From: Candidatus Omnitrophota bacterium
GTDB lineage: Bacteria > Omnitrophota > Gorgyraeia > Aquiviventales > Aquiviventaceae
DNA length: 64,000 bases
NCBI GenBank assembly: GCA_016180575.1
Contig: JACPAY010000002.1
Span: 27,235 to 91,234, forward strand
Reading direction: 5' to 3'
This document shows positions 4,157-52,001 of the stretch, piece after piece. Every line of letters starts with the position of its first letter. The first letter of the stretch is position 1. The notes beneath the pieces were generated by a model that saw only the letters and a program-made list of their open reading frames with translations, had not been told where the DNA came from and did no database searches. Made by a program: the position numbers and the translations under genes.

Positions 4157-4229
4157 TCCTTCGACTCGCTTCGCTCGCTCAGGATCATGGTGAGCAAGGC
4201 CCCGCCGTACGGCGGGGCCGCGTCGAACC

Positions 4230-9147: not shown

Positions 9148-10263
9148 ATGCCAGTCTGCGATCTAGTCTTGATCAGTTGGAATCATCTCGAGCAGACGCG
9201 GCCGTGCCTGGAGACGCTCTTCCGGTCGACCCGGACGCCGTGCCGCCTCTTCATCGTGGACAACGGCAGCACACCTGCGGTGCGCGCGTTCCTCGCCGGG
9301 GTGAAGCCGCAGGGCGAGATCCGGGAGGTCGTGCTGCTGCAGAACGACTCCAATGAGGGGTTCCCCCGCGCCGTGAACCGCGGCATCCGCGCCTCCTCGG
9401 CGCCGTTCGTCTGCCTCCTCAACAACGACCTGCGGTTCGCCGCGGGGTGGCTGGAGGAGATGCTCGAGGTGGCGCGCGCCGGCCCCTCGATCGGCGCGGT
9501 CAACCCGACCAGCAACACGTTCGGCAATGTCCCTCCGGACGGCCTGCCGCTCGACGCCTACGCCGACCGCCTCCGGGCGCGTCACGGCCGGTACACGGAA
9601 GTCGGGATGTGCATCGGGTTCTGCATCCTGACGAAGCGGGAGGTGCTGGATCGGCTGGGGGGGCTCTCCGAGGAGGTCGAGCGGATCTTCTTCGAGGACG
9701 AGGATTTCTCCATCAGGGTCCAGCAGGCCGGGTTTCGGTGCGTCGTGGCGCATGCGGCGTACGTCTTTCACGCGGAGCATCAGACGGTGAAGAAGATGCC
9801 GGAGCGCGAGGCGCTCTTCGTGAGGAACCAGCGGTGGTGCCACGCGAAGTGGGGCCGGTGGGTCCGCATGGCCTGGCCGCGCTTCACGCCGCTCACCCCG
9901 GGCTCGGAGGAGCTGCGCCGGTGGCTGGAGGAGCTGCTGGGCTGGGCCAGGCGCCGGACCCACGTCTACGTCTACTGCCCCCTGCCGCCCCGGATGACGC
10001 GGGACGCGCTGTTCGGCTCCGTCGGCCTCGTCCCGCACGCGGACATCCGGTGGCATCCGGTGGCCGCCGGCTGGGCCCGCTGGGCGGCCGCCGGGCGCAT
10101 CCTGCGGCGGCGGAAGAAGCGGTTCGATATCATCGTGGCGCCGGACGAGCGGTGGCGGCGGGCGCTTGAGCGCCTGGCGTGGGTGCACCGCGCGCAGGTG
10201 GTCCCCGCCGCGCACGCCGAGGAACTGGAGGCGCAATGGGAACGGTCCCGCTCTCGGTTGTGA
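9148..10263 (+). CDS. GT2 glycosyltransferase
   Basis: Motifs LFIVDNGST and LLNNDLRFAAGWLEEM. Length 371 aa. Confidence 0.8.
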   Translation: MPVCDLVLISWNHLEQTRPCLETLFRSTRTPCRLFIVDNGSTPAVRAFLAGVKPQGEIREVVLLQNDSNEGFPRAVNRGIRASSAPFVCLLNNDLRFAAGWLEEMLEVARAGPSIGAVNPTSNTFGNVPPDGLPLDAYADRLRARHGRYTEVGMCIGFCILTKREVLDRLGGLSEEVERIFFEDEDFSIRVQQAGFRCVVAHAAYVFHAEHQTVKKMPEREALFVRNQRWCHAKWGRWVRMAWPRFTPLTPGSEELRRWLEELLGWARRRTHVYVYCPLPPRMTRDALFGSVGLVPHADIRWHPVAAGWARWAAAGRILRRRKKRFDIIVAPDERWRRALERLAWVHRAQVVPAAHAEELEAQWERSRSRL

Positions 10264-13035: not shown

Positions 13036-15699
13036 ATGAAACCGCCCGTGTTCATCGTCGGATCGGGCGGGTCCGGCACCACCCTCCTTCGGTTGATGCT
13101 GAACGCGCACCCCCACCTCGCGATCCCGCCGGAATCGAACTTCGTCCCGGAGGTGTGGAAGGCGTTCGAGCGCGCGCAGCCCTGCAGCCCGGACACGCGC
13201 CGGGAAATTCTGCGCTTTCTGGAGGGGTTTCCCGGCTACCATGACTTCCAGCTCGACCGCGCCCGCGTCGAGGCCCGGCTGGATGCGCTCTCCCGGCCCA
13301 TGCTGTCGGACGTGCTCGACGCCATCTACCGCGAATACGCCGAGCGGCACGGCAAGTCGCGGTGGGGCGACAAGACGCCCGGCTACGTCGAGCAGCTCAG
13401 GCGGCTCAACGCGCTCTTTCCGAACTGCCTGGTCATCCACCTGATCCGCGACGGCCGGGATGCGGCGCTCTCCATGCTCGCCCGGGGCGTCGGGCCCCGC
13501 ACCCTCTACGAGGCGGCCAGGGAATGGGTGGGGCGCGTCCGGCGGGGGCGTCGCGACGGCGCGCAGGTGCTGGGGAGCGCCCGCTACCTGGAGGTCTATT
13601 ACGAGCGGCTCGTCGCCGAGCCCCGGGAAACGCTGCAGCGCGTCTGCGCGTTCGTCGGCGAGCCTATGGATGAGGTGCTGCTGGCCTTCTACCGCGACGC
13701 GAGCCGGCACATCCCTGAGGCGGAGCGGCAGAAGCACGCGGCGACGACCCGCCCGGTGACGACCGAGCGGGTGGGGCGGTGGGAGCGGGACATGCGCCTG
13801 CTGGACGTACTGATCGTGCAGGCGGTTGCAGGGTCGCTGCTCGCGGAGCACGGCTACGCGCTGAAGCGCTCGCCGCTGGCCGCGCCGGTCAGCGCCGCGG
13901 TCTGGTGCCGCCTGGCGGCCGAGCGGTTGCTGCGAACGCCCAAAAAGCTCTACAATAGCGTCGCCAAACGGCTCACCAAAAAAAGGGGTCAGACCCCTTT
14001 TGCCGAAAAGGGGTCTGACCCCTCTGAGCGCCAGGCGCTGTCGGTGGTCATCATCGCGCGCAACGAGGAGCGGCGGATCGGCCGGTGCCTTTCGAGCGTG
14101 CAGTGGGCGGATGAGATCATCGTCGTGGACGGGATGAGCGAGGACCGGACGGCCGAGATCTGCCGGCAGATGGGGGCGCGGGTCGTGTCGCACCCCTTTG
14201 AGGGGAGCTTTGCAAAGGAGCGAAATCTCGGGATGGAGCACGCCCGGGGTGAGTGGGTGCTGCAGCTTGACGCCGACGACGTGGTCACGCCGGCGTTCCG
14301 GGAGGCGGTGGCGCGGATGCTGAAAACGCCCCAGCCCCACGAGGCGTTCAAGTTCAGGCGGAAGAGTTTCCTGATGGGGCGATTCATGCGCCACGGCGGC
14401 TGGTACCATGAGCTGCCGAACCTCGTGCGGCGGACGGTCCGCTACGAAGGGCTGGTCCATGAGCGTCCGGTGATCCGAGGCACCATCGGCCGGCTGGACG
14501 CCGACGTGGAACACCATCCTTGCGACGACCTGACATCGTTCCTGGACCGGCACAACCGCTACACGACGCTCAGCGCCCAGGAGCTGGCCGGCCGGGGCGA
14601 GCGGCTGACCGAGGCCCAATGGCGCGCGCGCCTCGTCCGGAAGCCGTGGAAGACGTTCTGGAAGACCTGCGTCAAGAAACAGGGGTTCCGGGAGGGGATG
14701 CACGGCCTGGTGTTCTCGCTCTTCTTTGCCGGTGTGGAGCTCATCAAGTGGGCGAAGGTCTGGGAGCGCTCACTGCGCGCCCCCGGCATGCCGCCGGGGG
14801 ACGAGCCGATGGCCGTCCGCGCCGCGCCGCCGGGCGCCGCCCCGTCGAGGGCAGCCCACCGTGAGACGCTGTCGGTCGTCCTCATGACGAAGAACGAGGA
14901 GGCGCGCCTTTCGGCCTGCCTCGACCAGGTCGTCGGATGGGCGGATGAGATCGTCGTCATCGATGACCTGAGCACCGACCGGACCGTGGAGATCGCCCGG
15001 CGCTATACCGACAAGGTCTTCGCCTTCGCCTTGGAGGACAACCACGACCGGCAGTGGAACCGGGGGATCGAGCGCGCCACCGGCGAATGGGTCCTCCACA
15101 TCGATGCGGACGAGGTGGTGACGCCCGCGCTCCGGGAGGCGATTGACCGGCGGCTCGCGGGGGCGGAGGGCTACGGCGCATTTGAGCTGATGCGGAAAAA
15201 CTTCTTTCTGGGCCGCCCGATGCGCGACGGCGGCTGGTACCACCGGCACCTCGTCCTGTTCCGCCGCCGGCTGTCGCGGTGCGTGGGGCAGGGGATCCAC
15301 GTGCGGCTGCAGGTGGACGGCCGCATCGGGTTCCTGGATGCCGAGATCGAGCACTACCCCTTCAGCTCCCTCGCGCAGTTCGTCGAGCGGCAGAACCACT
15401 ACACCGGCGTCGAGGCCCGCGTCCTCTTGGCGGAGCGCGGCGCGCCGAGCCTGCGGGTCCTCCGCTACCAGCTGACGGTGCGGCCGGTGAAGCTGTTCTG
15501 GAAGAGCTACATCAAGCATCGGGGCCGCCGCGAGGGGGTGCACGGGCTCGTGTTCGCGCTCCTCTACGCGTTCGCCCACGTGATGCTGTGGGCCAAGGTC
15601 TGGCAGCTGAGCCTGTCGGAGGCGCCGCCCGCCTCCGCGGCGGCTGCGCAGCCGAACCAGGAGCCTGAGCTGACGCCATGGCACGCCAGTCCGACGTGA
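13036..15699 (+). CDS. Sulfotransferase domain followed by two tandem WaaE/KdtX-like GT2 domains in one stop-free frame (fusion or unseparated genes)
   Basis: The N-terminus VFIVGSGGSGTTLL is a PAPS-binding P-loop sulfotransferase. LSVVIIARNEERRIG starts at about 14040 and LSVVLMTKNEEARLS at about 14870. An AT-rich hairpin element lies in-frame at the first junction. Confidence 0.55.
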   Translation: MKPPVFIVGSGGSGTTLLRLMLNAHPHLAIPPESNFVPEVWKAFERAQPCSPDTRREILRFLEGFPGYHDFQLDRARVEARLDALSRPMLSDVLDAIYREYAERHGKSRWGDKTPGYVEQLRRLNALFPNCLVIHLIRDGRDAALSMLARGVGPRTLYEAAREWVGRVRRGRRDGAQVLGSARYLEVYYERLVAEPRETLQRVCAFVGEPMDEVLLAFYRDASRHIPEAERQKHAATTRPVTTERVGRWERDMRLLDVLIVQAVAGSLLAEHGYALKRSPLAAPVSAAVWCRLAAERLLRTPKKLYNSVAKRLTKKRGQTPFAEKGSDPSERQALSVVIIARNEERRIGRCLSSVQWADEIIVVDGMSEDRTAEICRQMGARVVSHPFEGSFAKERNLGMEHARGEWVLQLDADDVVTPAFREAVARMLKTPQPHEAFKFRRKSFLMGRFMRHGGWYHELPNLVRRTVRYEGLVHERPVIRGTIGRLDADVEHHPCDDLTSFLDRHNRYTTLSAQELAGRGERLTEAQWRARLVRKPWKTFWKTCVKKQGFREGMHGLVFSLFFAGVELIKWAKVWERSLRAPGMPPGDEPMAVRAAPPGAAPSRAAHRETLSVVLMTKNEEARLSACLDQVVGWADEIVVIDDLSTDRTVEIARRYTDKVFAFALEDNHDRQWNRGIERATGEWVLHIDADEVVTPALREAIDRRLAGAEGYGAFELMRKNFFLGRPMRDGGWYHRHLVLFRRRLSRCVGQGIHVRLQVDGRIGFLDAEIEHYPFSSLAQFVERQNHYTGVEARVLLAERGAPSLRVLRYQLTVRPVKLFWKSYIKHRGRREGVHGLVFALLYAFAHVMLWAKVWQLSLSEAPPASAAAAQPNQEPELTPWHASPT
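13978..14026. repeat. Perfect 17-bp-stem hairpin (AAAAGGGGTCAGACCCCTTTT gccg AAAAGGGGTCTGACCCC) embedded in-frame
   Basis: It has family-C-like architecture around a TCAGA/TCTGA core. The local AT-rich, Lys-rich codons are atypical for this genome. TGA occurs in both alternative frames but not in the coding frame. Confidence 0.6.
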
Positions 15700-16070
15700 T
15701 CATCCAGCCGCGGGAGCCGTTCATCGACGCCCGCGGCCGGATCCTGAACCTGATCGATGCGCCGTTTACCAGCGCCGCCGTCGTGACCTCGGTCAAGGGC
15801 GCAGTCCGCGGCAACCACTACCACAAGACCGACTACCATTATTGCTGGCTGCAGCGCGGCGGGCTCATCTACCTGCACCGGCCTGCCGGCGCCGCGACGC
15901 CCCCGGAGCGATGGGTCATCGCGCCGGGGCAGCTCTTCTACACGCCGCCGGGCTATGAGCACGCGATGCGCTTCACGGAGGATTCCGTGATGGTGGTCCT
16001 GGCCCGCAACAACCGCGAGATGGCCAACTACGAGGCGGACACCGTGCGCACCCCGCCCCTCGGTCCATGA
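15678..16070 (+). CDS. FdtA/WxcM-like cupin (NDP-sugar 3,4-ketoisomerase family)
   Basis: 130 aa with the His-rich cupin motif VRGNHYHKTDYHYCW. It overlaps the neighbouring genes by a few nt. Confidence 0.65.
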   Translation: MARQSDVIIQPREPFIDARGRILNLIDAPFTSAAVVTSVKGAVRGNHYHKTDYHYCWLQRGGLIYLHRPAGAATPPERWVIAPGQLFYTPPGYEHAMRFTEDSVMVVLARNNREMANYEADTVRTPPLGP

Positions 16071-17389
16071 GGCAAGAGCCCCCAGCCTCCAGCCTCCAGC
16101 CTCCAGCCCCCGCCGCCGTCAGGCGGCGGACGGACTGCCGGCTGTGCGGGTCCCGCGACTTGCAGCAGGTCATGTCGCTTGGCGCGACGCCGCTCGCCAA
16201 CGCCTTCGTCAGCGCCGCCGACCGAAAGACACCGCAGGCGCGCTTCCCGCTCGACGTGCACCTCTGCGGGGGCTGCGGCCACGTGCAGCTGCTCGACGTG
16301 GTGGACCCGGAGGTCCTCTTCCGGGACTACGTCTATGTCTCCTCGACCTCGCCCGTGTTCGTGGACCATTTCCGCCGCTACGCCGAGGCGATGCTCGCCC
16401 TCACCGGCATGCCGGCGGGTTCGCGGATCGTGGAGATCGGCTCAAATGACGGCGCGCTGCTCGGCTTCTTCCAGGCGGCCGGCATGCGGGTCCTGGGGAT
16501 CGACCCGGCCCGCCGGATCGCCGAGCGAGCCACCGCCGGCGGCATCCCGACGCTGCCCGAGTTCTTCACCCCGGCGCTCGCCAAGCGGCTGCGCACGGAG
16601 GGCGGGGAGGCGGCGCTCGTGGCGGCCAACAACGTCTTCGCGCACGCGGATGACCTGCACGCGATCGCCGAGGGGGTCGCGCAGCTCCTCGCGCCCGACG
16701 GCCTCTTCGTCTTTGAGGTCTCCTACCTCCTCGACGTCGTGGAGAAGACGCTCTTCGACACGATCTACCATGAGCACCTCAGCTACCACACGGTGAAGCC
16801 GCTGGCCAGCTTCTTCGAGCGGCACGGGATGGAGCTCATCGACGCCATCCGCATCGATTCCCATGGCGGATCGCTGCGCGGCATCGCCAAGCGACGCCCG
16901 CCCCGGCGATGGTCAGCGGCGGGCCGGGGCGGCGGCCGCTTCCCCAGGCAGCCGGGCGTGGACCGGCTCATCAGTGAGGAGGCCCGCCTGGGCCTGCACG
17001 GGCCCGAAGCGTTCCGGGCGTTCTTCCGCGACATCCAGAGCCGCAAGGCGGAGCTGACCCAGCTGCTGCGGCGGCTCAAAGGAGAAGGGAAGCGGATCGC
17101 CGGCTTCGGCGCCCCGGCCAAGGCGACGACGCTGATGTTCCACTTCGGCCTCGGGCCAGAGACGCTGGACTACGTGATCGATGACAGCCCCCTCAAGCAG
17201 GGGCTCTACACGCCTGGCCACCACCTGCCGGTCGTGCCCTCCTCCTGCCTCTACGAGGCGTCCCGCCGGCCGGACGAGGTACTCATCCTCGCCTGGAACT
17301 TCGCCGAGCCGATCATGCAGGCGCACCGGAAGTTCCTCGATGCGGGCGGCCATTTCATCGTGCCGCTCCCCCGCGTGGAGGTCCGATGA
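16067..17389 (+). CDS. NDP-hexose C-methyltransferase (TylCIII/NovU-like) with an N-terminal Zn-ribbon
   Basis: CRLCGS...CGGCGHVQL zinc-binding domain, followed by the SAM-binding motif IVEIGSNDG and the C-methyltransferase C-terminal domain. Confidence 0.75.
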   Translation: MRQEPPASSLQPPAPAAVRRRTDCRLCGSRDLQQVMSLGATPLANAFVSAADRKTPQARFPLDVHLCGGCGHVQLLDVVDPEVLFRDYVYVSSTSPVFVDHFRRYAEAMLALTGMPAGSRIVEIGSNDGALLGFFQAAGMRVLGIDPARRIAERATAGGIPTLPEFFTPALAKRLRTEGGEAALVAANNVFAHADDLHAIAEGVAQLLAPDGLFVFEVSYLLDVVEKTLFDTIYHEHLSYHTVKPLASFFERHGMELIDAIRIDSHGGSLRGIAKRRPPRRWSAAGRGGGRFPRQPGVDRLISEEARLGLHGPEAFRAFFRDIQSRKAELTQLLRRLKGEGKRIAGFGAPAKATTLMFHFGLGPETLDYVIDDSPLKQGLYTPGHHLPVVPSSCLYEASRRPDEVLILAWNFAEPIMQAHRKFLDAGGHFIVPLPRVEVR

Positions 17390-18456: not shown

Positions 18457-19554
18457 ATGCCTGAGCCGGTCCGTTTGGGCCTGATCGGCGCCGGGCGGTG
18501 GGGGCGCGTCCACCTCCGGACCCTCCTCTCGCTCGGGGACCGCGTCCGGCTCACGCACCTGTGCACCACCAAGCCGGCTGCGGCCGACCTCTTGCCGTAC
18601 CCGGTGAGCGTCGTGCCCGACTGGCGGCAGCTCCTCCGGGCGCCGTGCGATGCGCTGATCATCGCGACGCCTCCCGCGTACCATCCCGAGATGCTCGAGG
18701 CCTGCCTGGACGCCGCCAAACCGTGCCTGGTGGAGAAGCCGCTGTGCCTCGACGTCGCCACTGCCGAGCGGCTCCACGAGCGCATCCGGGCCTCAGGCGT
18801 CCCGGTGCTGGTCAACCACACCCACCTCTTCGCGCCGGCGTATCGCGCCCTGAAGCGGGCGGTGGCGGAGGGCGGGGAGCCGATCCGGATCCTCCTCTCG
18901 GAGGGGATGGGCTTCGGCCCGTTCCGGACCCACACCCCCACCCTCTGGGATTGGGGTCCGCATGACGTGAGCCTCTGCCTCGACCTCCTGGGGGAATCCC
19001 CGCGCGGCGTGGAGGCGCTGGGCGGCCCGCGCAGCCCGGACGGCGACCCGGAGCTGGTCAGCCTGCGCCTCGAGTTTCCGGGGGGCGCCTGCGCCTGGAT
19101 CCAGACGGGGCGGCTCGCCGCCAAGAAGCGGCGGAGCCTGGCGGTCATCACCAACAGCCGGCTCTATCTCCTCGACGACCTGGCGGCCGAGCCGCTGACG
19201 GTCGCTCCCATCCAGTTCTCAGAACGGTACACCGATGGCGTGCCGGAGCCGCCGGCCCCTGTGCCGCTACAAATGAGGAGTCCGGTTCCCTCTTTCCCTT
19301 CGGAACACTCGGGGAAACAGGGAACCGGACCCGGGACTGGCATGGCGACGATGGCCCATGTCCTGACCTATTTCCTGGACGGGCTGGCCGGAGGCGACCG
19401 CAGCCAGTTCGGGACCGGGCTTGCGCTGGAGGTGACCCGCGTGCTGGCCGCCTGCGAGCGGGCGCGCATCTCCCGGTATCAGATACCGGTTGAAGGAAGC
19501 CGCTCTTTCAGGCCGGTATCTGATACCGGAGAGGGACATGGCGCCGTTCCGTGA
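18457..19554 (+). CDS. Gfo/Idh/MocA-family oxidoreductase carrying an in-frame family-A element
   Basis: N-terminus RLGLIGAGRWGRVHL, and DALIIATPPAYH. The C-terminal third contains the repeat translated as QMRSPVPSFPSEHSGKQGTGPGT. Confidence 0.7.
   Translation: MPEPVRLGLIGAGRWGRVHLRTLLSLGDRVRLTHLCTTKPAAADLLPYPVSVVPDWRQLLRAPCDALIIATPPAYHPEMLEACLDAAKPCLVEKPLCLDVATAERLHERIRASGVPVLVNHTHLFAPAYRALKRAVAEGGEPIRILLSEGMGFGPFRTHTPTLWDWGPHDVSLCLDLLGESPRGVEALGGPRSPDGDPELVSLRLEFPGGACAWIQTGRLAAKKRRSLAVITNSRLYLLDDLAAEPLTVAPIQFSERYTDGVPEPPAPVPLQMRSPVPSFPSEHSGKQGTGPGTGMATMAHVLTYFLDGLAGGDRSQFGTGLALEVTRVLAACERARISRYQIPVEGSRSFRPVSDTGEGHGAVP
19270..19340 (+). repeat. Family-A element copy 3 (inside a CDS, in-frame)
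   Basis: caaatgaggagtccggttccctctttcccttcggaacactcggggaaacagggaaccggacccgggactgg. Confidence 0.8.
19473..19528. repeat. Family-C REPIN-like element (CCGGTATCAGATACCGG ... CCGGTATCTGATACCGG)
   Basis: Two self-palindromic 17-mers in inverted orientation separated by a 22-nt spacer. It overlaps the 3' end of the oxidoreductase and the 5' region of the methyltransferase. Confidence 0.8.
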
Positions 19555-20428
19555 CCGGCGGATGGAGGCGGGCTTCCCCTCATGGGGGCTGCCCGGCAGC
19601 CGCGCCGCCCGGCTGGTCTTCGGAGACCTGGCCGCCTACCTCCGGCAGCCGCTGGAGACGGTCGCAGAGGCCTACTGGCGCCACCGGGACGGCGACGACC
19701 TGGCCGCGCAGCGGCGGGTCGGCGAGGCGACGGAGGCGGCCGACGTCCTGGCCTACTACGCGGCGACGCCCCACTATCTCTATGAGCTGAGCTACTGGGA
19801 GGCCTCGCCCGACAAGCAGGCGTGGTTCCGCGTCATCGAGCGGGCCTGCCGGCGGCACCGGCTGCGGCGCGTCCTGGATTTCGGCGGGGGGGTGGGCGGC
19901 CTGTGCCTGTTCCTCAACGCCCGGGGCATCCGCTGCGACTACCTCGACGTGGGCGGCAAGACGTTTGAGTACGCGGCCTGGCGGTTCGCGCGGCACCGGC
20001 TCGACGTGGCGATGCATGACGCGGCATCCGGCGACGGCCACTCGTCCGGCTCGTACGATGCCGTGGTCGCCTGGGATGTCCTGGAGCACCTCTTCGATCT
20101 GGAGGGGGCGATCCGGCGCATAGCCGCCCTCCTGCGCCCCCGGGGCTGGTTCCTCAGCAAGTCGACCTTCGCGGTGTCCGGCACTGAGCATGAGGCGATC
20201 CACCTGGCCCAGCATGCCCGGTACGCGGACGTCGCGGAGCTCAACCGCCTGATGGCCCGCAGCGGCTTTCGGTTCGTCGGGCAGCTCAAGCCGGACCGGC
20301 TCTCCCGGCTGCTGCGGCTGTGTGGCCTCCGGCAGGCGGTCGCGGGGATCCGGATCGCGCCGCGCCTGAAGCACGGCGGCAACTTCCTCATCCATGAGCG
20401 GGGCGGCACCGAGGCGGGCGATGCATAA
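19538..20428 (+). CDS. Class-I SAM-dependent methyltransferase
   Basis: VLDFGGGVGGL motif. Start chosen at ATG MAPFRDRR, downstream of a GGAGAGGGA Shine-Dalgarno-like site. An upstream in-frame extension through the repeat is also possible. Confidence 0.65.
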   Translation: MAPFRDRRMEAGFPSWGLPGSRAARLVFGDLAAYLRQPLETVAEAYWRHRDGDDLAAQRRVGEATEAADVLAYYAATPHYLYELSYWEASPDKQAWFRVIERACRRHRLRRVLDFGGGVGGLCLFLNARGIRCDYLDVGGKTFEYAAWRFARHRLDVAMHDAASGDGHSSGSYDAVVAWDVLEHLFDLEGAIRRIAALLRPRGWFLSKSTFAVSGTEHEAIHLAQHARYADVAELNRLMARSGFRFVGQLKPDRLSRLLRLCGLRQAVAGIRIAPRLKHGGNFLIHERGGTEAGDA

Positions 20429-21227
20429 GACGGTGCGGAAGGTCCTGCGGGCGGTGGCGGACTACGACCCGGACTACTTCGACATGTACGCGGATGCGGC
20501 CGAGGCGATGTTCGCCCGGCTCTACGTGGAGCGGATCCTGCGGCACGCCTCCGCCGCGGGCATCCGCCAGCCGGCCACGCTGCTGGAGGCCGGCTGCCAG
20601 GCGGGGCGGCTCGTGGTCCCGTTCGCAAGAGCGGGCTTCCGCGTGACCGGCATCGACACCTCCGGCTTCGCCCTCCGGCGCGCCCGCGAGCACGCGAAGG
20701 CCGCCGGCGTGGACGCCGCGTTCATCCAGGGCGACCTGCTCGCGGTGCTGCGCCGCCAGCCGGCGCCGCAATTCGATGTGGTCGTCTGCGCCGAGGTGGT
20801 CTATCTCTCGCCGCAGCACCGCCAGATGCTGGAGGCGCTCGCGGCGGCGGTCAGGCCGGGGGGGCTGCTGTGCGTCTCGCACCGGCCGAAAATGTATTAC
20901 CTGCTCGAGGCGCTCCGGCAGTATGATGTGACGAGCGCAACGGACGTCCTGCGGCGCGGCGAGGGACCGTTTCGGGACAGCGCCTATTACAACTGGCAGA
21001 CCCCAGACGAGCTGCGCGCCCTGTACCGGTCGCTTGGGCTGCGCTGCCTCGCGGTGCATCCCATCGACCGCCTGGCGTGGCTGGCCCAAGTGGACGTGAA
21101 GCGGCTGAGCGAGCCGCAGCGCGCGCAGTGGGTGCAGTGGGAGCTGGAGCTGCCGGATGACACCGCCGGGGACTGCGCCCGCTACCTCCTCATCGTGGCG
21201 GAGCGTCCGGCAGAATCGCACGCATGA
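20421..21227 (+). CDS. Class-I SAM-dependent methyltransferase
   Basis: LLEAGCQAGRL motif. Its ATG overlaps the upstream TAA as ATGCATAA. Confidence 0.7.
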   Translation: MHKTVRKVLRAVADYDPDYFDMYADAAEAMFARLYVERILRHASAAGIRQPATLLEAGCQAGRLVVPFARAGFRVTGIDTSGFALRRAREHAKAAGVDAAFIQGDLLAVLRRQPAPQFDVVVCAEVVYLSPQHRQMLEALAAAVRPGGLLCVSHRPKMYYLLEALRQYDVTSATDVLRRGEGPFRDSAYYNWQTPDELRALYRSLGLRCLAVHPIDRLAWLAQVDVKRLSEPQRAQWVQWELELPDDTAGDCARYLLIVAERPAESHA

Positions 21228-25986: not shown

Positions 25987-26008
25987 GGTTGGCGTGTTTG
26001 CCGGTTAG

Positions 26009-26052
26009 CGTGTTTGCGCGTTAACGCACGAACGCGCCAACGCGCAAACGAA
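26009..26052. terminator. Hairpin between convergent priA and the TPR gene (GTTTGCGCGTT...AACGCGCAAAC), candidate bidirectional terminator
   Basis: An 11-bp stem lies in the 75-nt gap between the convergent stops. It is followed by the AAAGGCGCTTTTAGGCGGAAAAACCTTT hairpin. Confidence 0.4.
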
Positions 26053-27220: not shown

Positions 27221-28134
27221 TGTTTTGCGGCACGGCGGCCTTTGCGGTGCCGAGCCTGGAACGGCTCCTCGCCGCGGGGCACACGATCGCGCGGTGCATC
27301 ACGCAGCCCGACCGGCCCCGGGGCCGGGGGCTCGCCCGTGAACCCTCCCCGGTGAAAGCGGCGGCGCTGCGCCTCCGCGTGCCGCTCGCCCAGCCGGAGC
27401 GCCTTTCGGCGGCGCCGCTGGAGGGCCTGGGCGCGGATGTCGGGGTCGTGGCGGCGTACGGGCAGCTGATTCCCCGGGACGTCCTGGCCTTGAGCCCGCA
27501 TGGGATGTTGGGCGTGCATCCGTCGCTCCTGCCGAAATACCGGGGTGCCGCGCCAGTCGCCTGGGCGCTCTTACACGGCGACACGGTGACCGGGGTCACG
27601 ATTTTCCGCCTCAACGAGCGCCTGGACGCCGGGGACATCCTGCTGCAGCGGCGTATGGAGGTCGAGCCGCGCGAGGACGCCCAGGCGCTCACGAGCCGGT
27701 TGGCGGAGGCGGGGGCCGAGGCGCTGGTGGAGGCGCTGGAGGCGGTGGCGGAGGGCCGAGCGCGCGCCACGCCGCAGGATGAGGCGCAGGCCACCCTGGC
27801 GCCGAAGCTGGCCAAGGCGCAGGGCCGGATTGACTGGCGCGCGCCGGCCGAGACGATTGAGCGGCTCGTGCGCGCGACCGTGCCGTGGCCTGGCGCCTCC
27901 ACCGCGTGGCGGGGCGTCTCCTTGAGGGTGTGGCGCGCCGCAGTCGGGGCGGGCGATTCCGCCTCCGCCCCGCCGGGGACGGTCGCGGCGGCGGGGCAGG
28001 GCATCATTCGTGTGGCGGCCGGGCGAGGGTGCGTGGATCTCCTCGAGGTGCAGCCGGCGGGCCGACGCCGGATGGGTGTTGCGGAGTTCCTCGCCGGCCA
28101 TCGCATGACTGTGGGAGAGCGGTTTGAGACATGA
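27211..28134 (+). CDS. fmt: Methionyl-tRNA formyltransferase
   Basis: N-terminus MRVMFCGTAAFAVPSL, and GVHPSLLPKYRGAAP. Overlaps def by 10 nt. Confidence 0.85.
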   Translation: MRVMFCGTAAFAVPSLERLLAAGHTIARCITQPDRPRGRGLAREPSPVKAAALRLRVPLAQPERLSAAPLEGLGADVGVVAAYGQLIPRDVLALSPHGMLGVHPSLLPKYRGAAPVAWALLHGDTVTGVTIFRLNERLDAGDILLQRRMEVEPREDAQALTSRLAEAGAEALVEALEAVAEGRARATPQDEAQATLAPKLAKAQGRIDWRAPAETIERLVRATVPWPGASTAWRGVSLRVWRAAVGAGDSASAPPGTVAAAGQGIIRVAAGRGCVDLLEVQPAGRRRMGVAEFLAGHRMTVGERFET

Positions 28135-28200
28135 GACAGGAGACAAGTGCAAGCCACACCTGTCCCATGTCCCATGTCCCATGTCCCATGTCTCAGCTTT
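28127..28200. repeat. Family-D palindromic heptamer array (GGACATG x4 and inverse) upstream of GalT-like gene 1
   Basis: gagacatgagacaggagacaagtg...cacctgtcccatgtcccatgtcccatgtcccatgtctc. The fmt stop lies in the left arm. Confidence 0.75.
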
Positions 28201-28204
28201 TCAC

Positions 28205-29287
28205 ATGCCTGAGCTGCGCAAGGATCCCTTGATCGGCCGGTGGGTGATCATCGCCACCGAGCGGGCCAAGCGGCCGGTGGACTTCATCGCGTTCCATGAG
28301 GAGCCGGCGCTGCAGGCCGACTGCCCGTTCTGCGCCGGAAACGAGGCGCGCACGCCCAAGGAGATCCTCGTCCTCCGCGGCGACGGGCCCGGCGCCCCAA
28401 ACGGCTGGCAGGTCCGGGTCGTCCCCAGCATCAACCCGGTGCTGCGCATCGAGGGGGCGCTCAACCGGCGCGGCAAGGGGATGTACGACATGATGGACGG
28501 CATCGGCGCGCATGAGATCGTGGTCGAGAGCCCGCAGCACATCGCCAATGCCGCGGACCTGCCGGTGGAACAGGTCCACGCCGCGCTCCAGGCGTCGATC
28601 GCGCGCATCGCGGACCTGGAGCGCGACCCCCGGTTCCGCTATGCGCTGTGGTTCAAGAACTACGGGTCGGTCGCCGGGGCCGGCCGGATCGAGCACACCC
28701 GGTCCCAGCTGATCGCCACCCCCGTGACCCCGCTGCGGGTCAAGGAGGAGCTGGTCGGCGCGCGGCGCTACTACGAGGACAAGGAGCGCTGCCTCATCTG
28801 CGACCTGCTCTTCCAGGAGCGGGAGGCCAAGCTCCGTGTGGTCATCGACTCGACCCACATCATCGCGCTGTGCCCCTTCGCGTCCCGGTTCCCCTTCGAG
28901 CTCTGGCTCCTCCCCAAACGGCACAACTGCGACTTCGCGAAGATGCAGCCGGAGGAGCTGAGCGACCTCGCGGCGGTCCTCAAGCAGGTCCTCAGCCGGC
29001 TCAAGACGGTGCTGGACGATCCGCCCTACAACGCCCTCCTGCACACCGCGCCCTTCCGCCGGCAGCGCGGGAAGGTCGGCCACTGGAAGACGATCGAGGA
29101 GGACTACCACTGGCACATCGAGCTGATCCCCCGCCTCACGCGGGTGGCGGGCTTTGAGTGGGGCAGCGGGTTCTACATCAACCCCACCCCGCCGGAGGAG
29201 TCGGCGAAGTACCTGCGGGAAGCCGGGGTCGACGTCGGCGAACATGTTGGGACAGGAGACAGGGGACAGGAGACAGGGGACAGGTAA
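28205..29287 (+). CDS. Galactose-1-phosphate uridylyltransferase-like (GalT/HIT superfamily) paralog 1, with HPH replaced by HTR
   Basis: CPFCAGNE zinc motif and FKNYGSVAGAGRIEHTRSQ. The position of the nucleophilic His is Arg (codons 28694-28702). The last approximately 14 aa (GTGDRGQETGDR) are encoded by the family-D array. Confidence 0.7.
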   Translation: MPELRKDPLIGRWVIIATERAKRPVDFIAFHEEPALQADCPFCAGNEARTPKEILVLRGDGPGAPNGWQVRVVPSINPVLRIEGALNRRGKGMYDMMDGIGAHEIVVESPQHIANAADLPVEQVHAALQASIARIADLERDPRFRYALWFKNYGSVAGAGRIEHTRSQLIATPVTPLRVKEELVGARRYYEDKERCLICDLLFQEREAKLRVVIDSTHIIALCPFASRFPFELWLLPKRHNCDFAKMQPEELSDLAAVLKQVLSRLKTVLDDPPYNALLHTAPFRRQRGKVGHWKTIEEDYHWHIELIPRLTRVAGFEWGSGFYINPTPPEESAKYLREAGVDVGEHVGTGDRGQETGDR

Positions 29288-29325
29288 TATGTCTCACGTC
29301 TCTTGTCTCCTGTCTCAGCAATTCC
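29237..29325. repeat. Family-D palindromic heptamer array (GACAGG[A/G] x5 and inverse) upstream of GalT-like gene 2
   Basis: gggacaggagacaggggacaggagacaggggacagg taatat gtctcacgtctcttgtctcctgtctc. It is followed by the conserved CTCAG-N12-CTGAG hairpin with the ATG in its loop. Confidence 0.75.
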
Positions 29326-30330: not shown

Positions 30331-32661
<2,331 letters not shown>

Positions 32662-38114: not shown

Positions 38115-38922
38115 GCCGGTCCTGGCGGTCCGGTCGCTGACGAAATCGTTCCCCATCCACTGGGGATGGCTGCGCCGAGAGACCAGCCGCATCGAGGCGG
38201 TGCGGGAGGTGACCTGGTCGCTGGCCAAGGGGGAAACGCTCGGCCTGGTGGGGGAATCCGGGTGCGGCAAGTCCACGCTGGCGAAGCTGTGCGTGGGGCT
38301 GCTGGCGCCGACCGCCGGCGAGGTCCTGGTCGCGGGGGCGCGCCTCGCCGGGCTGCGGGGCGGAGCAGCCCGCGCGGCGCGCCGGATGATCCAGATGGTC
38401 TTTCAGGACCCCACCGGCAGCCTCAACCCGCGGATGACGGTTGGCGAGATGCTCGATGAGCCGCTGGTCATCCACCGCCTCGCGGCCGGCCGGGCCGCGC
38501 GCCGCCGGCGGGTGGCGGAGCTGCTGGAGACGGTGCAGCTGCCGGCAGGCTTCGCCCGCCGCCTGCCGAGGGAGCTGAGCGGGGGAGAGCGCCAGCGCGT
38601 CGGCATCGCCCGGGCGCTCGCCGTCGAGCCGGCGGCGCTGATCTTGGACGAGCCGGTGGCATCGCTCGATGTGTCGGTGGGCGCCAAGATCCTGGAGCTG
38701 CTGCGCGCGCTGCGCGCGCGCCTTGGCATGGCGGTGCTGTTCATCTCGCATGACCTCGGCATGGTGGCCTCGCTCTGCGAGCGGATGGCGGTCATGCGCG
38801 AGGGGCGCCTGGTGGAGCTTGCCCCGACCCAGCAGCTCCTGGCCCATCCGGCGCACCCCTATACCCAGCTCCTCATCCGCTCATCCGCGCTCGACCTCGA
38901 CGCCGACACGTCCCGTATCTGA
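38107..38922 (+). CDS. ABC peptide transporter ATP-binding protein (OppF/DppF-like)
   Basis: Walker A GESGCGKST and signature LSGGERQR. The stop TGA is inside the family-C arm. Confidence 0.85.
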   Translation: MAEPVLAVRSLTKSFPIHWGWLRRETSRIEAVREVTWSLAKGETLGLVGESGCGKSTLAKLCVGLLAPTAGEVLVAGARLAGLRGGAARAARRMIQMVFQDPTGSLNPRMTVGEMLDEPLVIHRLAAGRAARRRRVAELLETVQLPAGFARRLPRELSGGERQRVGIARALAVEPAALILDEPVASLDVSVGAKILELLRALRARLGMAVLFISHDLGMVASLCERMAVMREGRLVELAPTQQLLAHPAHPYTQLLIRSSALDLDADTSRI

Positions 38923-38971
38923 TACGGGTACGGGGCCTATGTTATAATGAAGCCCCGTATCAGATACGGGG
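38912..38971. repeat. Family-C REPIN-like element (CCCGTATCTGATACGGG ... CCCCGTATCAGATACGGGG) with an internal TTATAAT hairpin
   Basis: The left arm contains the oppF stop codon. The spacer carries TATAAT 26 nt upstream of the marC ATG. Confidence 0.8.
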
Positions 38972-45997: not shown

Positions 45998-47112
45998 AGA
46001 GACGCTATAACGTCGCCGTCGTCGGCGCCACGGGCGCCGTCGGCACGGAGATGCTCCGGGTGCTTGCGGAGCGCCGGTTCCCCGTGAACCGGCTCCGGGT
46101 CCTGGCGTCCGCCCGCTCGGCGGGCCGGCGCGTGCCGTTCAACGGCGCCACGCACGCGGTGGAGGAACTGCGCGGGCGGTCATTCGACGGGATCGACTTA
46201 GCGCTCTTCAGCGCCGGGGCGACGCGGAGCCTCGAGTTTGCGCCCGAGGCGGTCCGGCGGGGCGCGGTGGTCGTCGACAACTCCAGCGCCTTCCGCATGG
46301 CGCCGAACGTGCCGCTCATCGTGCCCGAGGTCAACCCCGAGGCGCTGTCGGGTCACCGCGGGCTCATCGCCAACCCCAACTGCTCCACCATCATCATGCT
46401 GGTGCCATTGGCCCCGCTGCACCGGGCAGCAGCCCTGCGGCGCATCGTCGTGGCGACCTACCAGTCGGTGTCGGGCGCGGGCGCCAAAGCCATGTGGCAA
46501 CTCCTCAACGAGACAAAAAAGGCCCTGAGACATTACGAGGCTAGGGGCTCAGGGCTAGGGGCTCAGGGCAAAAGCCCCAAAGGGTTTTCAATGAAGCAAC
46601 TCCTTGCTCGGCCCATAGCCCATAGCCCACAGCCCAGGGTCTTGCCCGCGCAGATCGCCTTCAACGTCATCCCGCAGGTGGACGTCTTCCTCGACAACCG
46701 CTCCACCAGGGAAGAGTTGAAGATGGTGAACGAGACCCGCAAGATCCTCGGCGAACCGCGCCTGCCGGTCTCCGCCACGTGCGTCCGCGTGCCGGTCTTC
46801 GTCTCGCATTCGGAGGCGGTGTGGATCGAGACCGAGCGGCCGCTCTCACGCGCGCGGGCGGCCGCGCTCCTGCGCCGCGCGCCGGGGGTGAAGCTGATCG
46901 ACGACCCCGGCCGGGGGGCCTACCCGCTGCCGATCCAGGCAGCCGGGCAGGACGACGTGCTCGTCGGCCGCCTCCGGCGGGATGAGTCGGTGGCGCACGG
47001 GCTCGCCCTCTGGATCAGCGGCGATAACCTCCGCAAAGGGGCGGCGACCAACGCCGTCCAGATCGCCGAGCTACTTACCGGTATCAGATACCGAACTCGC
47101 TTTGGTATCTGA
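45994..47112 (+). CDS. asd: Aspartate-semialdehyde dehydrogenase, with an in-frame repeat insertion and a repeat-encoded C-terminus
   Basis: Motifs VAVVGATGAVG and NPNCSTI (active-site Cys). IAFNVIPQVD. Stop inside the family-C arm. Confidence 0.85.
   Translation: MKRRYNVAVVGATGAVGTEMLRVLAERRFPVNRLRVLASARSAGRRVPFNGATHAVEELRGRSFDGIDLALFSAGATRSLEFAPEAVRRGAVVVDNSSAFRMAPNVPLIVPEVNPEALSGHRGLIANPNCSTIIMLVPLAPLHRAAALRRIVVATYQSVSGAGAKAMWQLLNETKKALRHYEARGSGLGAQGKSPKGFSMKQLLARPIAHSPQPRVLPAQIAFNVIPQVDVFLDNRSTREELKMVNETRKILGEPRLPVSATCVRVPVFVSHSEAVWIETERPLSRARAAALLRRAPGVKLIDDPGRGAYPLPIQAAGQDDVLVGRLRRDESVAHGLALWISGDNLRKGAATNAVQIAELLTGIRYRTRFGI
46537..46640. repeat. Palindromic heptamer-array element inserted in-frame in asd (GGGGCTCAGGGCTAGGGGCTCAGGGC ... 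GCCCATAGCCCATAGCCCACAGCCC)
   Basis: The arms are imperfect reverse complements built from the 7-mer GGGCT[C/A][A/G]. The centre is AT-richer. It adds about 25 aa (ARGSGLGAQGKSPKGFSMKQLLARPIAHSPQPR) between conserved Asd blocks. Confidence 0.65.
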
Positions 47113-47118
47113 TACCGG
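47078..47118. repeat. Family-C REPIN-like element (CCGGTATCAGATACC ... GGTATCTGATACCGG)
   Basis: It encodes the last 12 aa and the stop of asd (TGIRYRTRFGI*). Confidence 0.8.
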
Positions 47119-47123: not shown

Positions 47124-47888
47124 ATGCGGACGCTCAAGCTGACCGTCGCCTACGACGGGACGCGCTACGCCGGCTGGCAGGCGCAGCGTCGAAGCCGCAC
47201 GGGCGGCAAGCCGACGATCCAGGAGACACTGGAGCGGGCGCTGCGCCGGATCCTGCGGGAGCCGGTGCGGGTCGTCGGCAGCGGCCGGACAGACGCCGGC
47301 GTCCACGCCGAATCACAGGTCGCCCACCTCCGGACGCGCACGACCCTCCCCGTCGCCGGGCTGCTGCGCGGCGTCAACGCCTTGCTGCCGGCCGACCTGG
47401 CCGTGACGCGCATCGAAGAGGTCCGCGGCTCGTTCCATGCCCGGTTCGGGGCGTCTCGCAAGCGATACCGCTACCGCCTCTTCACCGGTCCGGTGGCGCC
47501 CCCGTTCATCCGGCCCTACGTCCATCACGTCCGCGCCCCCCTGAACGTCGCCCTGATGCGGCGGGAGGCGGCGGCCCTGCGCGGTACGCACGACTTCAAG
47601 GCCTTCGCCCGCGCCGCAGCGGTCCCGCGCGGCACGACCCGCCGGACCATCACGGACATCCAGGTGCGCAGACGCGGCGGCGAGTTGCAGGTTGACGTCG
47701 AGGGCAATGGGTTCCTCCACACGATGGTCCGCACGATCGCTGGCACGCTGATCGACGTCGGGCGGGGCCGCCTGCCGCCCGGGACGGTGCGCCGCATGCT
47801 GCGCACCGGCTCGCGGTCGCTCGCCGGCACGGTGGCGCCGGCGCAGGGGCTCACACTGCGCGCCGTGACCTATCGGGACGCCCCCTGA
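47124..47888 (+). CDS. truA: tRNA pseudouridine(38-40) synthase
   Basis: Motifs KLTVAYDGTRYAGWQ and VVGSGRTDAGVHA. Confidence 0.85.
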   Translation: MRTLKLTVAYDGTRYAGWQAQRRSRTGGKPTIQETLERALRRILREPVRVVGSGRTDAGVHAESQVAHLRTRTTLPVAGLLRGVNALLPADLAVTRIEEVRGSFHARFGASRKRYRYRLFTGPVAPPFIRPYVHHVRAPLNVALMRREAAALRGTHDFKAFARAAAVPRGTTRRTITDIQVRRRGGELQVDVEGNGFLHTMVRTIAGTLIDVGRGRLPPGTVRRMLRTGSRSLAGTVAPAQGLTLRAVTYRDAP

Positions 47889-49972: not shown

Positions 49973-50127
49973 CACCCGCAGCCAACAAGGACCCATGCCC
50001 GCCCGCACGACCGCGAGCCCCGGCATCGCAAGTCCCCTGTCACCCGCCAACCTTTTTCGCTTGACAGCGGAACCTGGAGGCTCCATAATTTCCAACAAAT
50101 GGTTGGTAAGGCATTGGGGGGGGAAGG

Positions 50128-50586
50128 TTGATGAGAGAGACGCAGCCGGTTGCGGTGAATGTGCCCCTAGAGCTTCAAAAGACCCTAGCGGAGCTTTTGA
50201 AGCTTGAGAAGGCAATGGATATCCTCGGCAAGCGGATTGCCGATCGCCGATGCTACGTTGATGCGCTCAAGCGAGTGCAGAACCATTTCAACGATCATCT
50301 GGAAACGTCCGAGTCCTCCAACCCCTCCTCGTCAAGCTCATCCTGCTCTTCCTCCAGCTCCATTCCAATTAGTGAATCAGCGGCACCTGTCACTTCCGCT
50401 TGTCTTGAGATTTTCAGGCAAGAACACGGCCCCCTCAGGTTGAGCTTTATTGAGAAACGACTTCGCGAACGGGGAGTTCGAGTGGGGCGAAACACGGCAT
50501 GGATGGCGATCAAGCGACTTGAGCAGAGGCACCGCATCCGTAAACGTAGCCGCGGTGTCTACGAGTTGATGAATGGTTCGAGCTAG
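50128..50586 (+). CDS. Hypothetical protein (152 aa) in a low-GC patch, with coiled-coil N-terminus, Ser-rich linker and basic C-terminal domain
   Basis: Its GC is markedly lower than the genome. GGGGGGAAGG lies upstream of the ATG. No recognisable family. Confidence 0.4.
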   Translation: MMRETQPVAVNVPLELQKTLAELLKLEKAMDILGKRIADRRCYVDALKRVQNHFNDHLETSESSNPSSSSSSCSSSSSIPISESAAPVTSACLEIFRQEHGPLRLSFIEKRLRERGVRVGRNTAWMAIKRLEQRHRIRKRSRGVYELMNGSS

Positions 50587-50724
50587 GGAATAAAAACAGG
50601 GCCAGTAGCTTCCACTACTGGCCCCGCAAAACTGATCGGTGCCCCGACTAGGAGACACGCGATCTGCGCTTTCGCGCTTTAATTTATTCTAAACCAATTG
50701 GAACTCCTGTCAAGCACTTTATGC

Positions 50725-50815
50725 GGAGGGGTGGGCGAGTGGTCGAAGCCAGCTGACTTAAAATCAGCCAATCGTCTGGGAGGACGGTTCACGAGTTCAA
50801 ATCTCGTCCCCTCCG
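50725..50815 (+). tRNA. tRNA-Leu (anticodon TAA), class II with a long variable arm
   Basis: Acceptor GGAGGGG/CCCCTCC, U8, 3-bp D stem, anticodon stem GCTGA/TCAGC with loop CTTAAAA, 22-nt variable arm, T arm ACGAG-TTCAAAT-CTCGT. No CCA is encoded. Confidence 0.85.
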
Positions 50816-51407
50816 CACACTCTTTAAGCTAAGTTGTCAAGGACCTATTAGCTTAATTCGGAGAAAGTACCCGCATAATTGTGCCTGTCCGGTCAAGTAA
50901 ATGTCAAATAAATTAATAAATTGAGCCGTTGATGAACCAGGAAGGCGACGGCAAGTGTGGGAGTAGTTAACCGTGAGGCGTGCATGGCGAAGAACGAGCG
51001 CACATCCCGGCGTGTCGCGTCGATTGCCAGCCGCATCCTTCGCGACCCTTGGGCAACTAGGGCGCAGAAGAGTGCGGCGGGTTCGGCGCTGACTCAGATT
51101 CGGGATCGCAAGCGGCGCGGACGGTAAGGCTCACTTAGCCGAGTGAGACGGACAATTGCGCAGGCTGGTATGGTAATCTGCCCTATCACCTGCGCATTGT
51201 CCTTTGTAGTATTCAAGCTCTGAGCCAGCGTCTTGTAGTCCTTCTGATTATCTGTCAGGAACCCGACGGAGAAACGCCGAGCTGGGAAAAAGGGTAGAAT
51301 ACCTTCCAGATGTTCCCAGCCAGGATCAGTCCTCTTGCTGTCTAGCCATTCGACTAGGACGAGCGGCGGCGGGTAGTGTCTCATTTTGAACGGTAGGAGG
51401 TCATAAG

Positions 51408-51521
51408 ATGCCTGAGTGTCAGCATGAGTGGGTGCAGGTGGTTGAAGACAAGGCGATTGGCCTGAAGCACATTGAGGTCTGCCGTTTGTGCGGCGTCAAG
51501 AAGTCCGAGAAGCAAACTTGA
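51408..51521 (+). CDS. Possible small zinc-ribbon protein (37 aa, MPECQHEWVQVVEDKAIGLKHIEVCRLCGVKKSEKQT)
   Basis: A perfect AGGAGG lies 8 nt upstream of the ATG. C4/H...CxxC arrangement. Located in the low-GC patch. Confidence 0.4.
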   Translation: MPECQHEWVQVVEDKAIGLKHIEVCRLCGVKKSEKQT

Positions 51522-51557
51522 CCACTACCGGCTCGACCACGCGGCTCGACCGCGCGG

Positions 51558-51586
51558 TTGACAGCTGCGCCCTCGTGTGTTACACT
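51558..51586 (+). promoter_or_regulatory. Consensus sigma-70 promoter TTGACA-N17-TACACT for rplM-rpsI
   Basis: -35 at 51558-63 and -10 at 51581-86. The rplM ATG (51596) lies about 10 nt downstream, giving a near-leaderless transcript. Confidence 0.55.
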
Positions 51587-51595
51587 CCCTCGCTA

Positions 51596-52001
51596 TGTCG
51601 ACGACGTTTCCCGCGGTCAAGACGATGCAGCGCGATTGGCTCGGATCGCGCTCATCCTCCGCGGCAAGCACAAGCCGACCTACACGCCGTTCCTGGACAC
51701 CGGCGATTTCGTCGTGGTCATCAACGCGGGGAAGGTCGCGGTGACCGGCAACAAGCTGAAGCAGAAGACGTATCAGCGCTACTCCGGCTACCCGGGCGGG
51801 CGGCGGGCGCGCACGCTGGAGGAGGTCCTCCGGACGCATCCCGACCGGGCGCTCCGCCAGGCGGTGAAGGGCATGATGCCGGACGGGCCGCTGGGGCGGC
51901 GGCTGCTCGGCAAGCTCAAGGTCTACGCCGGCCCGGCGCACCCGCACGCAGCGCAGCAGCCGAAACCGATTGACGTGGGGACCTCGACTCGCCATGGCTG
52001 A
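51596..52001 (+). CDS. rplM: 50S ribosomal protein L13, with the canonical N-terminus in a different frame from the body (apparent frameshift/deletion near codon 15)
   Basis: The ATG at 51596 encodes [15 protein letters not shown], matching the L13 consensus M.TF.A....V.RDW. The body [40 protein letters not shown]... reads in the +2 frame from about 51631 (the ORF track starts it at a TTG inside the -35 box). Confidence 0.75.

Follow-up and report, generated by a model that had tools for sequence, protein, structure and literature searches.

How do two arrays of tandem 7-nt repeats, each an imperfect reverse complement of the other, come to lie in frame in the middle of a gene for a housekeeping enzyme? 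The gene is asd, an essential gene of amino-acid synthesis that codes for aspartate-semialdehyde dehydrogenase (Asd), in a 64,000-nt stretch of DNA from a Candidatus Omnitrophota bacterium (contig JACPAY010000002.1; hereafter the window, 70% GC overall, in whose numbering positions are given unless a locus of a relative is named). We suggest that the arrays are probably neither a newcomer to the gene nor a need of the enzyme, but a clade-wide, vertically inherited, self-homogenising inverted heptanucleotide microsatellite that is tolerated in a permissive loop of Asd. The gene product falls into the NCBIfam equivalog for Asd (NF011456 and TIGR01296, E 3e-141), matches Asd structures in the PDB at E 7e-93, and is 100% identical to P0001, a protein of a Candidatus Omnitrophica metagenome-assembled genome (MAG). 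Coordinates are collected in Table 1.

An earlier note on this DNA had described palindromic heptamer arrays placed in frame between conserved Asd blocks, within a segment richer in AT than its surroundings. Both observations hold: Tandem Repeats Finder (TRF), a repeat search and alignments recover the arrays and the inverted repeat at that place, and in the window copy the segment has a GC content of 0.59, and of 0.61 at third codon positions (GC3), against 0.71 and 0.94 in the flanks. The left arm, translated as ARGSGLGAQG, is read by TRF (46539–46569) either as 2.2 copies of a 14-nt period with a 100% match or as 4.1 copies of a 7-nt period, and the right arm (46611–46636) as 3.7 copies of a 7-nt period at 94%; the repeat search pairs 46545–46569 with 46611–46635, as arms of 25 nt that are 80% complementary and 41 nt apart. 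The sense RNA is predicted to fold at −58.6 kcal/mol, compared with −42.5 ± 3.8 in 200 dinucleotide shuffles (z −4.2; reached by 0 of 200), and the excess extends to the antisense RNA (z −3.1) and to single-stranded DNA (z −3.9). The predicted hairpin consists of helices of 4–7 bp, with small internal loops about every 7 nt. Its loop codes for KSPKGFSMKQLLAR, and about 33 nt of it are extra with respect to the closest short-loop ortholog (compared: P0002 (L112), L095 and L105); these extra nucleotides are predicted to form a small stem-loop of their own, with a sequence that is unique in the window and common only to the long-loop orthologs. As a separate observation, a 14-nt imperfect direct repeat (ATGTGGCAACTCCT at 46492–46505 and ATGAAGCAACTCCT at 46591–46604, 99 nt apart) joins the conserved MWQLL codons to MKQLL codons within the hairpin loop; we dropped it as the trace of a duplication, with about 0.3 such matches expected by chance on a rough estimate.

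The segment is bounded by the invariant residues E173 and Q220, between whose equivalents outgroup Asd proteins (55–64% identity) carry 19 aa and the window protein 46 aa. Since the AlphaFold2 model (36-sequence alignment) is only moderate, with a pLDDT (the program's per-residue confidence) of 72.7 overall and 28–53 over residues 181–230, the insertion site was placed by sequence alignment to PDB Asd; the model itself draws the insert region, at low pLDDT, as two short strands and a helix. The mapping onto Asd structures that the earlier note had proposed leaves residues 185–217 unaligned to 2qz9 and residues 180–215 unaligned to 8juo. Considering the missing counterpart in solved structures, the shorter outgroups and the low pLDDT, we place the segment by alignment in a variable loop of Asd, a probably permissive one that is flanked by the helix next after the SGAG motif and by the QIAFN strand. 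The size of the addition, put at about 25 residues in the earlier note, is 27 aa with respect to the outgroups but only 12 aa with respect to the commonest clade ortholog (46 versus 34 aa).

The close orthologs available for comparison are 116 parseable Asd proteins from Candidatus Omnitrophica MAGs, with 69–81% identity; ortholog DNA comprised 31 loci from a pattern scan of metagenome contigs and five from exact-protein look-ups (30 distinct sequences), and the outgroup control contigs came from an Asd-motif contig scan, with at most 59% identity among the matches listed. All 116 orthologs carry the segment, at lengths of 27–81 aa (mode 34 aa, in 48 of the 116; 46 aa in three), and only outgroups at ≤64% identity lack it. 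Because all close orthologs are occupied and absence is limited to those outgroups, the segment is ancestral to the clade, and the window copy is a long-loop, G-rich variant of it. At the DNA level 21 of the 30 distinct sequences contain 4–5 heptamers, a loop and 4–5 inverse heptamers, all in one register, with G at segment columns 21/28/35/42/49 in 17–21 of these 21 periodic orthologs, the window included; in the G-rich subclade, which is that of the window, neither the GG columns nor the CC columns of the right arm vary. A discrete insertion setting the window asd apart from its orthologs, as the earlier note had it, is thus not borne out. Native loops of equal length, which would have spoken against an insertion, are literally present (46 aa in P0009 and P0019), yet those loops are heptamer hairpins as well, and misassembly is excluded because more than 30 independent metagenome assemblies agree on the same architecture at the same site.

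This occupancy also bears on the idea that a miniature mobile palindromic element, akin to a MITE (miniature inverted-repeat transposable element) or a Rickettsia palindromic element (RPE), was recently inserted in frame into asd. The segment does look the part, being palindromic, in frame, AT-richer than its host gene, stop-free and translated with the host protein, and RPEs, also palindromes of about 100–150 bp that lie in frame in housekeeping genes and add a fold-compatible extra peptide, provide a precedent (PMC10969869). Moreover, identical arms at two junctions of one genome, described below, show that hairpins can be copied between loci, and relatives have arrays of the GGGYTNN type at further loci. 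However, RPEs form dispersed families with conserved sequence and peptide and with insertion polymorphism (PMC10969869), whereas the asd element is conserved only in period and register, consists of microsatellite arrays and occupies a single orthologous site, where it is fixed. Within the 64 kb there are no dispersed near-identical copies, the loop sequence being unique and the arms matching only themselves and, loosely, the array at 16077; no presence/absence variation is seen among the close orthologs, and no direct repeat at the arm boundaries points to a target-site duplication. With all 116 orthologs occupied and the arrays in one register, we regard a recent insertion as highly improbable.

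What is conserved at the site is the architecture, while the unit itself varies with lineage (GTTCGAA, GTGGCGA, GTTCCGG, TTTCGCG, CGTTGGC, GGGCTCA, GGGGTTC, GGGGCAG and others), and in a neighbour-joining tree related lineages have related units. The commonest peptide, FRVSSSEFRV...LETRNSKLET, corresponds to units of the TTCCGAG/CTCGAAA type, and its variants arise from single-base changes that are spread through all units and matched in the opposite arm. Eleven 102-nt orthologs, which align without gaps, formed the covariation test set: 74% of their cells are paired, as against 31–39% with slid partners, and 21 of 32 pairs have changed on both sides, the observed values being reached by none of 500 shuffles. 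The G-rich subclade is likewise 74% paired, against 17–51% in slid controls, with one position per heptad that is never paired, but covariation is uninformative there because the unit varies little. Most periodic orthologs fold beyond their shuffles (z −4 to −7), and 74 of the 116 ortholog proteins retain a lag-7 periodicity in the peptide. The GT/AC step conserved at each seventh nucleotide of the common class might suggest a recognition motif, but we give it no weight, as conserved Val/Phe codons together with homogenisation could yield the same pattern.

The distance at third codon positions of the flanks has a median of 0.48 at a GC3 of about 0.8–0.9, and we take these positions to be near saturation; despite this flank divergence, the units inside one arm are mostly 70–100% identical. 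The pair L089 and L116 differs by 5.3% in 600 flanking nt and by about 45% in the insert, where both arms have been swapped for new, still periodic units. These comparisons show that the segment evolves much faster than its flanks, and that its evolution at this one orthologous site is both concerted and compensatory. In addition, GC3 is 0.61 in periodic inserts, compared with 0.84 in the flanks and 0.81 in non-periodic inserts, a drop which shows a nucleotide-level constraint overriding codon usage.

These data speak to two further explanations. First, the segment might be an adaptation at the protein level, an extra surface loop of Asd (for example a beta-hairpin and a short helix) in which the heptamer periodicity would be an incidental trace of origin. 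The segment is never deleted, an F/W/C-x-V motif recurs 7 aa apart, an LLxxP motif occurs in the long-loop class, and the two strands and helix of the AlphaFold2 model would fit such a fold. However, the peptide changes wholesale with the unit (FRVSSSEFRV, WRVASGEWRV, RGSGLGAQG), the pLDDT over this region is low, the GC3 values speak for constraint on nucleotides, and the complementarity of the arms is not predicted by any constraint on the peptide; we therefore think an adaptive protein loop quite unlikely. Second, the left arm fits a quadruplex motif, (G3+N4)x4 or more loosely (G3–4N3–4)x4, which together with the antisense of the right arm could make the segment a G-quadruplex element like the GGGAATC repeats of Xanthomonas. 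The sequence motif is present in the window copy, four units per array are preferred as in those repeats (PMC4692102), and the GG columns of the G-rich subclade are invariant. Most orthologous copies, however, have the same four-unit architecture at the same site with units that are not G-rich (GTTCGAA, GTGGCGA, TTTCGCG) and lack the motif; G4 formation therefore cannot be a conserved property, and we give a quadruplex element very little credence.

The segment is translated straight through. Every one of the 37 inserts has a length divisible by three, and 36 of them contain no stop; with frame and stop-freeness so conserved we reject a translational bypass or an excision of the hairpin. The exception, an in-frame TAA in the right arm of the asd insert of L103 (73–174), lies on a 1.1-kb contig and may be a sequencing error or belong to a pseudogene. 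Translation takes a repeated 7-nt unit through all three phases, so that none of them may contain a stop triplet, and 38 of 40 arm consensus units are indeed stop-free in every cyclic phase (expected, 0.79). An exact complement would bring in a stop triplet, TGA or TAG, for 11 of the 40 units (9 of 20 hairpins); a periodic mismatch of the GGGCTCA type occurs because the complement TGAGCCC contains such a triplet. Stop-codon avoidance is nevertheless only a partial explanation of the arm mismatches: as their sole cause it is rejected, given that it accounts for no more than those 11 units and, at the level of single sites, for 19 of 114 mismatches.

The asd copy is one of a wider class. With a threshold of period 7 and at least three copies, 55 arrays were counted in the 257 kb of the clade, of which 31 lie beyond the asd insert, and 11 in 1.18 Mb of outgroup DNA, so that the density in the clade is about 13 times the outgroup level, and periods 5, 6 and 8 give only 4–8 arrays in the clade. 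Where genes have been called, most arrays occupy junctions of co-directional genes (oppC|ABC, leuB|asd, asd|truA, argC|argJ, argJ|argB, argF|argG), where a typical hairpin has its left arm beginning at or over the upstream stop codon and its right arm ending 3–10 nt before the next ATG. The window asd copy departs from this placement, and its sister copies conform to it. The earlier note had likened the asd arrays to those of arm, spacer and inverse arm before two GalT-like genes, and these prove to be elements of the same kind; a search of the window and of relatives' contigs finds heptamer-array palindromes at gene junctions in both, and heptamer arrays in a TruA loop of relatives. At the first of the two GalT junctions the upstream stop codon falls in the left arm, and 9 nt separate the end of the right arm from the ATG; at the second a TAA stop lies within the loop, and the ATG is at 29326. 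The minus-strand unit of the single array at 16077, GGRGGCT, resembles the asd unit.

Table 1. Positions in the window of asd, of its heptamer-array segment and of related arrays
Feature	Position	Strand	Basis
asd (aspartate-semialdehyde dehydrogenase) coding sequence, 372 aa	45994..47112	+	Open reading frame, NCBIfam, PDB matches
Hypervariable clade-specific segment, codons 174–219, 138 nt	46513..46650	+	Alignments; lengths in 116 orthologs
Whole predicted interrupted hairpin, outer stem 46536–46542 / 46638–46644	46536..46644	+	RNA and DNA folding
Left arm, G-rich heptamer array GCTAGGG GCTCAGG GCTAGGG GCTCAGG GC	46539..46569	+	TRF, repeat search
Loop, 41 nt, two predicted small stem-loops (46571–46588 and 46595–46608)	46570..46610	+	Fold
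Right arm, C-rich array GCCCATA GCCCATA GCCCACA GCCCA, imperfect complement of the left arm	46611..46636	+	TRF, fold
Single array AGCCYCC x5, junction before or 5' end of C-methyltransferase gene	16077..16111	+	TRF
Heptamer hairpin GAGACAN x3 / TGTCCCA x4–5, junction formyltransferase|GalT-like 1	28125..28195	+	TRF, palindrome search
Heptamer hairpin GGGACAG/GAGACAG x5 / TCTCNNG x4, junction GalT-like 1|GalT-like 2	29245..29320	+	TRF, palindrome search

Several observations in relatives extend this picture. Between GWQxQ and T[IV]Q, TruA has a loop of 4 aa in outgroups and of 5–28 aa in the clade. In many relatives this loop is an in-frame heptamer array (L095 6099–6149, L104 3550–3600, L108 8527–8574, L114 11162–11206, L116 11185–11247), so that truA joins asd as a housekeeping gene whose 7-nt repeats are translated; the TruA loop of the window (47187–47213) has 9 aa and is non-periodic. 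The asd|truA spacer in relatives (L108 8258–8455; L104 3357–3484) holds long heptamer hairpins, with up to 13 + 9 units of TCAGANN/TCTGANN, and inside truA there is a third array with the same polarity, which would allow the right arm to find a partner on either side of the truA start codon, upstream or downstream. In L116 the same AGTCCAT-type hairpin arms stand at two gene junctions (4215–4339 and 9910–9992) with different loops, and an identical left arm of ATTGCGG x4.5 is found at 15807–15884 and 20390–20465 with unrelated right arms, the second pair being non-complementary.

In another explanation, the asd mRNA hairpin and its counterparts at junctions would be a cis-acting nucleic-acid structure that is maintained by selection. 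Possible roles include the tuning of expression (ribosome pausing, a barrier to RNase III/E or to exonucleases, translational coupling) or recognition by a protein that reads the 7-nt period, and a regulatory effect of the asd mRNA hairpin through ribosome pausing or nuclease targeting is possible. We hold selection for such a structure to be a possibility to be taken seriously, though on balance doubtful. The strong covariation and the excess folding would be expected of it, as would the placement of junction hairpins exactly between a stop and the next start and the conservation of one mismatch per heptad in the G-rich subclade. Set against this, about a third of the ortholog DNAs keep the length of the segment and its peptide but are neither periodic nor folded beyond expectation (z about 0); arm complementarity across orthologs ranges from 39% to 87%; and the asd hairpins have 25 G.T to 22 A.C mismatches, hence no strand signal and no excess of G.U. 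A search of the window against Rfam 15 gave a tRNA as the only match, and a local search nothing better than E 0.46; no internal promoter or terminator signal was found, and the periodic mismatch is also explained by stop-codon avoidance. The even mismatches, the decayed third of the orthologs and the range of complementarity support a DNA-level process that may well be dispensable for Asd.

Several points nevertheless weigh against a self-homogenising microsatellite and, in part, for selection. No member of the clade has deleted the segment (minimum 27 aa), and parts of its peptide follow conserved patterns, which are F-x-V ... F-x-V for the common class and LLxxP for the class with long loops. 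The junction hairpins, read on the sense strand, have 17 G.U to 6 A.C, a weak signal that hints at pairing at the RNA level. In L116 and L114 the two arms are each perfectly periodic and yet non-complementary (52% and 39% Watson–Crick); arms can therefore homogenise independently, so that templating between arms is not obligatory, and since it is not, the usual complementarity is harder to explain without selection. Pairing that has been kept, with compensatory changes of the unit, over near-saturated divergence could equally fit a selected RNA or DNA structure, and the homogenisation mechanism is one that we infer rather than observe directly.

Should the segment be such a self-homogenising microsatellite, the evolving unit would be the nucleic acid rather than the peptide. 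Homogeneity of the arrays would be upheld at the DNA level by replication slippage and by gene conversion within arrays, and template switching, as in quasipalindrome correction, or conversion between arms or between copies may also contribute. Selection would merely filter the outcomes, for reading frame, for freedom from stop codons and for a loop that can be tolerated, and the element would persist through the tolerance of the loop and not through a need of Asd. Where homogenisation stops, the segment would decay to ordinary GC-rich coding sequence of equal length.

The closest known elements are heptameric simple sequence repeats (SSRs). The cyanobacterial short tandemly repeated repetitive (STRR) heptamers, reportedly treated by Mazel in 1990 and by Elhai in 2008, we take to be further relatives among heptamer repeats; in the STRR/SDR arrangement a small dispersed repeat (SDR) is nested within such an array. 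Our literature searches returned no description of heptamer hairpins in Omnitrophica. Most of the G-rich heptameric SSRs GGGAATC of Xanthomonas and GGGGAYT of Nostoc lie between co-directional open reading frames (ORFs), with a stop or start codon no more than about 50 bp away, and some overlap ORFs; their position is conserved between related species (83%), and each Xanthomonas genome has 70–75 inverted pairs that converge and could fold into stem-loops (Rehm et al., 2015, PMC4692102). The arrays described here share with them the tandem 7-nt units, the preference for about four units, the inverted pairs, the co-directional junctions and the conservation of position; the window asd unit has the same G3–4N3–4 form, and the window copy likewise consists of at least three head-to-tail 7-nt units in a convergent inverted pair able to form a stem-loop. 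In contrast, Xanthomonas has one genome-wide consensus unit, whereas in the Omnitrophica clade the unit differs between most loci and lineages; unlike those repeats, the asd copy lies in frame in the middle of an essential gene, is orthologous clade-wide and has covarying arms, and most of its orthologous copies are not G-rich.

Long heptanucleotide SSRs are also known from prokaryotes more generally (Mrazek et al., 2007, as summarised in PMC4679880), among them the TAACTGA repeats of Beggiatoaceae, Cyanobacteria and Bacteroidetes (PMC4679880). Within the scope of that summary, these resemble the clade arrays in favouring 7 nt, in clustering a short way upstream of start codons, in having slippage proposed for them and in occurring within ORFs only in stop-free orientations, but the TAACTGA-type arrays are direct repeats of one heptamer for which an inverted partner is all but absent (1 of 170 sets in BOGUAY), and no concerted turnover of the unit at an orthologous coding site is reported for them there. 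As in the repetitive extragenic palindromes (REP), bacterial interspersed mosaic elements (BIME) and REP doublets (REPIN), the sister hairpins lie in intercistronic spacers of operons and some arms are multi-copy in one genome; REP/BIME, however, are extragenic palindromes of 20–40 nt with a family consensus and are not based on tandem repeats, whereas the asd copy lies inside a gene, is made of tandem repeats and follows no family consensus (no search for RAYT, the transposase partner of REPs, was made). With respect to the heptameric SSRs, it is the locus- and lineage-specific units, the in-frame site within a gene and the covarying orthologous arms that appear to be new.

The window carries other repeats as well. 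Two copies of a near-palindrome, CCGGTATC[A/T]GATACCGG, make up each member of a REP-like family (19473–19529, 38912–38970 and 47078–47118), the last of which overlaps the asd stop codon and codes for ...TGIRYRTRFGI, an unusual C-terminal tail. Another hairpin family, also dispersed, is GTCCGGTTCCCGCTTTCC ... GGAAACCGGGAACCGGAC, with its three copies at 3090–3140, 19280–19330 and 31420–31470; their arms are 94–95% complementary. A 16-nt tandem repeat (GGTTAGCGTGTTTGCC x2) at 25987–26050 runs into an overlapping palindrome of 31 nt and a repeat of 8 nt, and a perfect 18-nt inverted repeat at 13984–14023 (AGGGGTCAGACCCCTTTT / AAAAGGGGTCTGACCCCT), with A/T tracts on both sides, resembles a bidirectional terminator. 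Positions 50001–52000, of low GC (0.58 versus about 0.71), hold a 91-nt tRNA (50725–50815) and AT-rich short tandem repeats (50892–50922), and may be an integration hotspot or foreign DNA.

Finally, it is conceivable, if rather unlikely, that a clade-specific active system writes and maintains heptamer-array hairpins, which are used as operon punctuation or as devices for translational coupling. If so, the writing system could be a dedicated polymerase, nickase or conversion activity, or a protein reading the 7-nt period, and the asd and truA copies would be cases of the machinery acting inside coding sequence, a protein loop being rewritten in whole-unit steps with the frame kept. The finding raises the question of whether the operon-junction heptamer hairpins of this uncultured clade are functional punctuation or genomic weeds. 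For annotation it means that hypervariable in-frame segments in conserved enzymes of the clade's MAGs are real features and not assembly errors, and that odd C-terminal tails or 5' ends beside junction hairpins are likewise real. In the middle of an essential gene, one would expect any microsatellite with a unit length not divisible by three to be purged; in asd an inverted pair of heptamer arrays has survived at a codon-exact site through near-saturated synonymous divergence, its units repeatedly swapped and its arms still complementary. Nature has thus replicated the case across a phylogeny, and it can be used to ask how bacteria bring about concerted evolution and conversion through hairpins, and how far processes at the nucleotide level can rewrite a protein loop.

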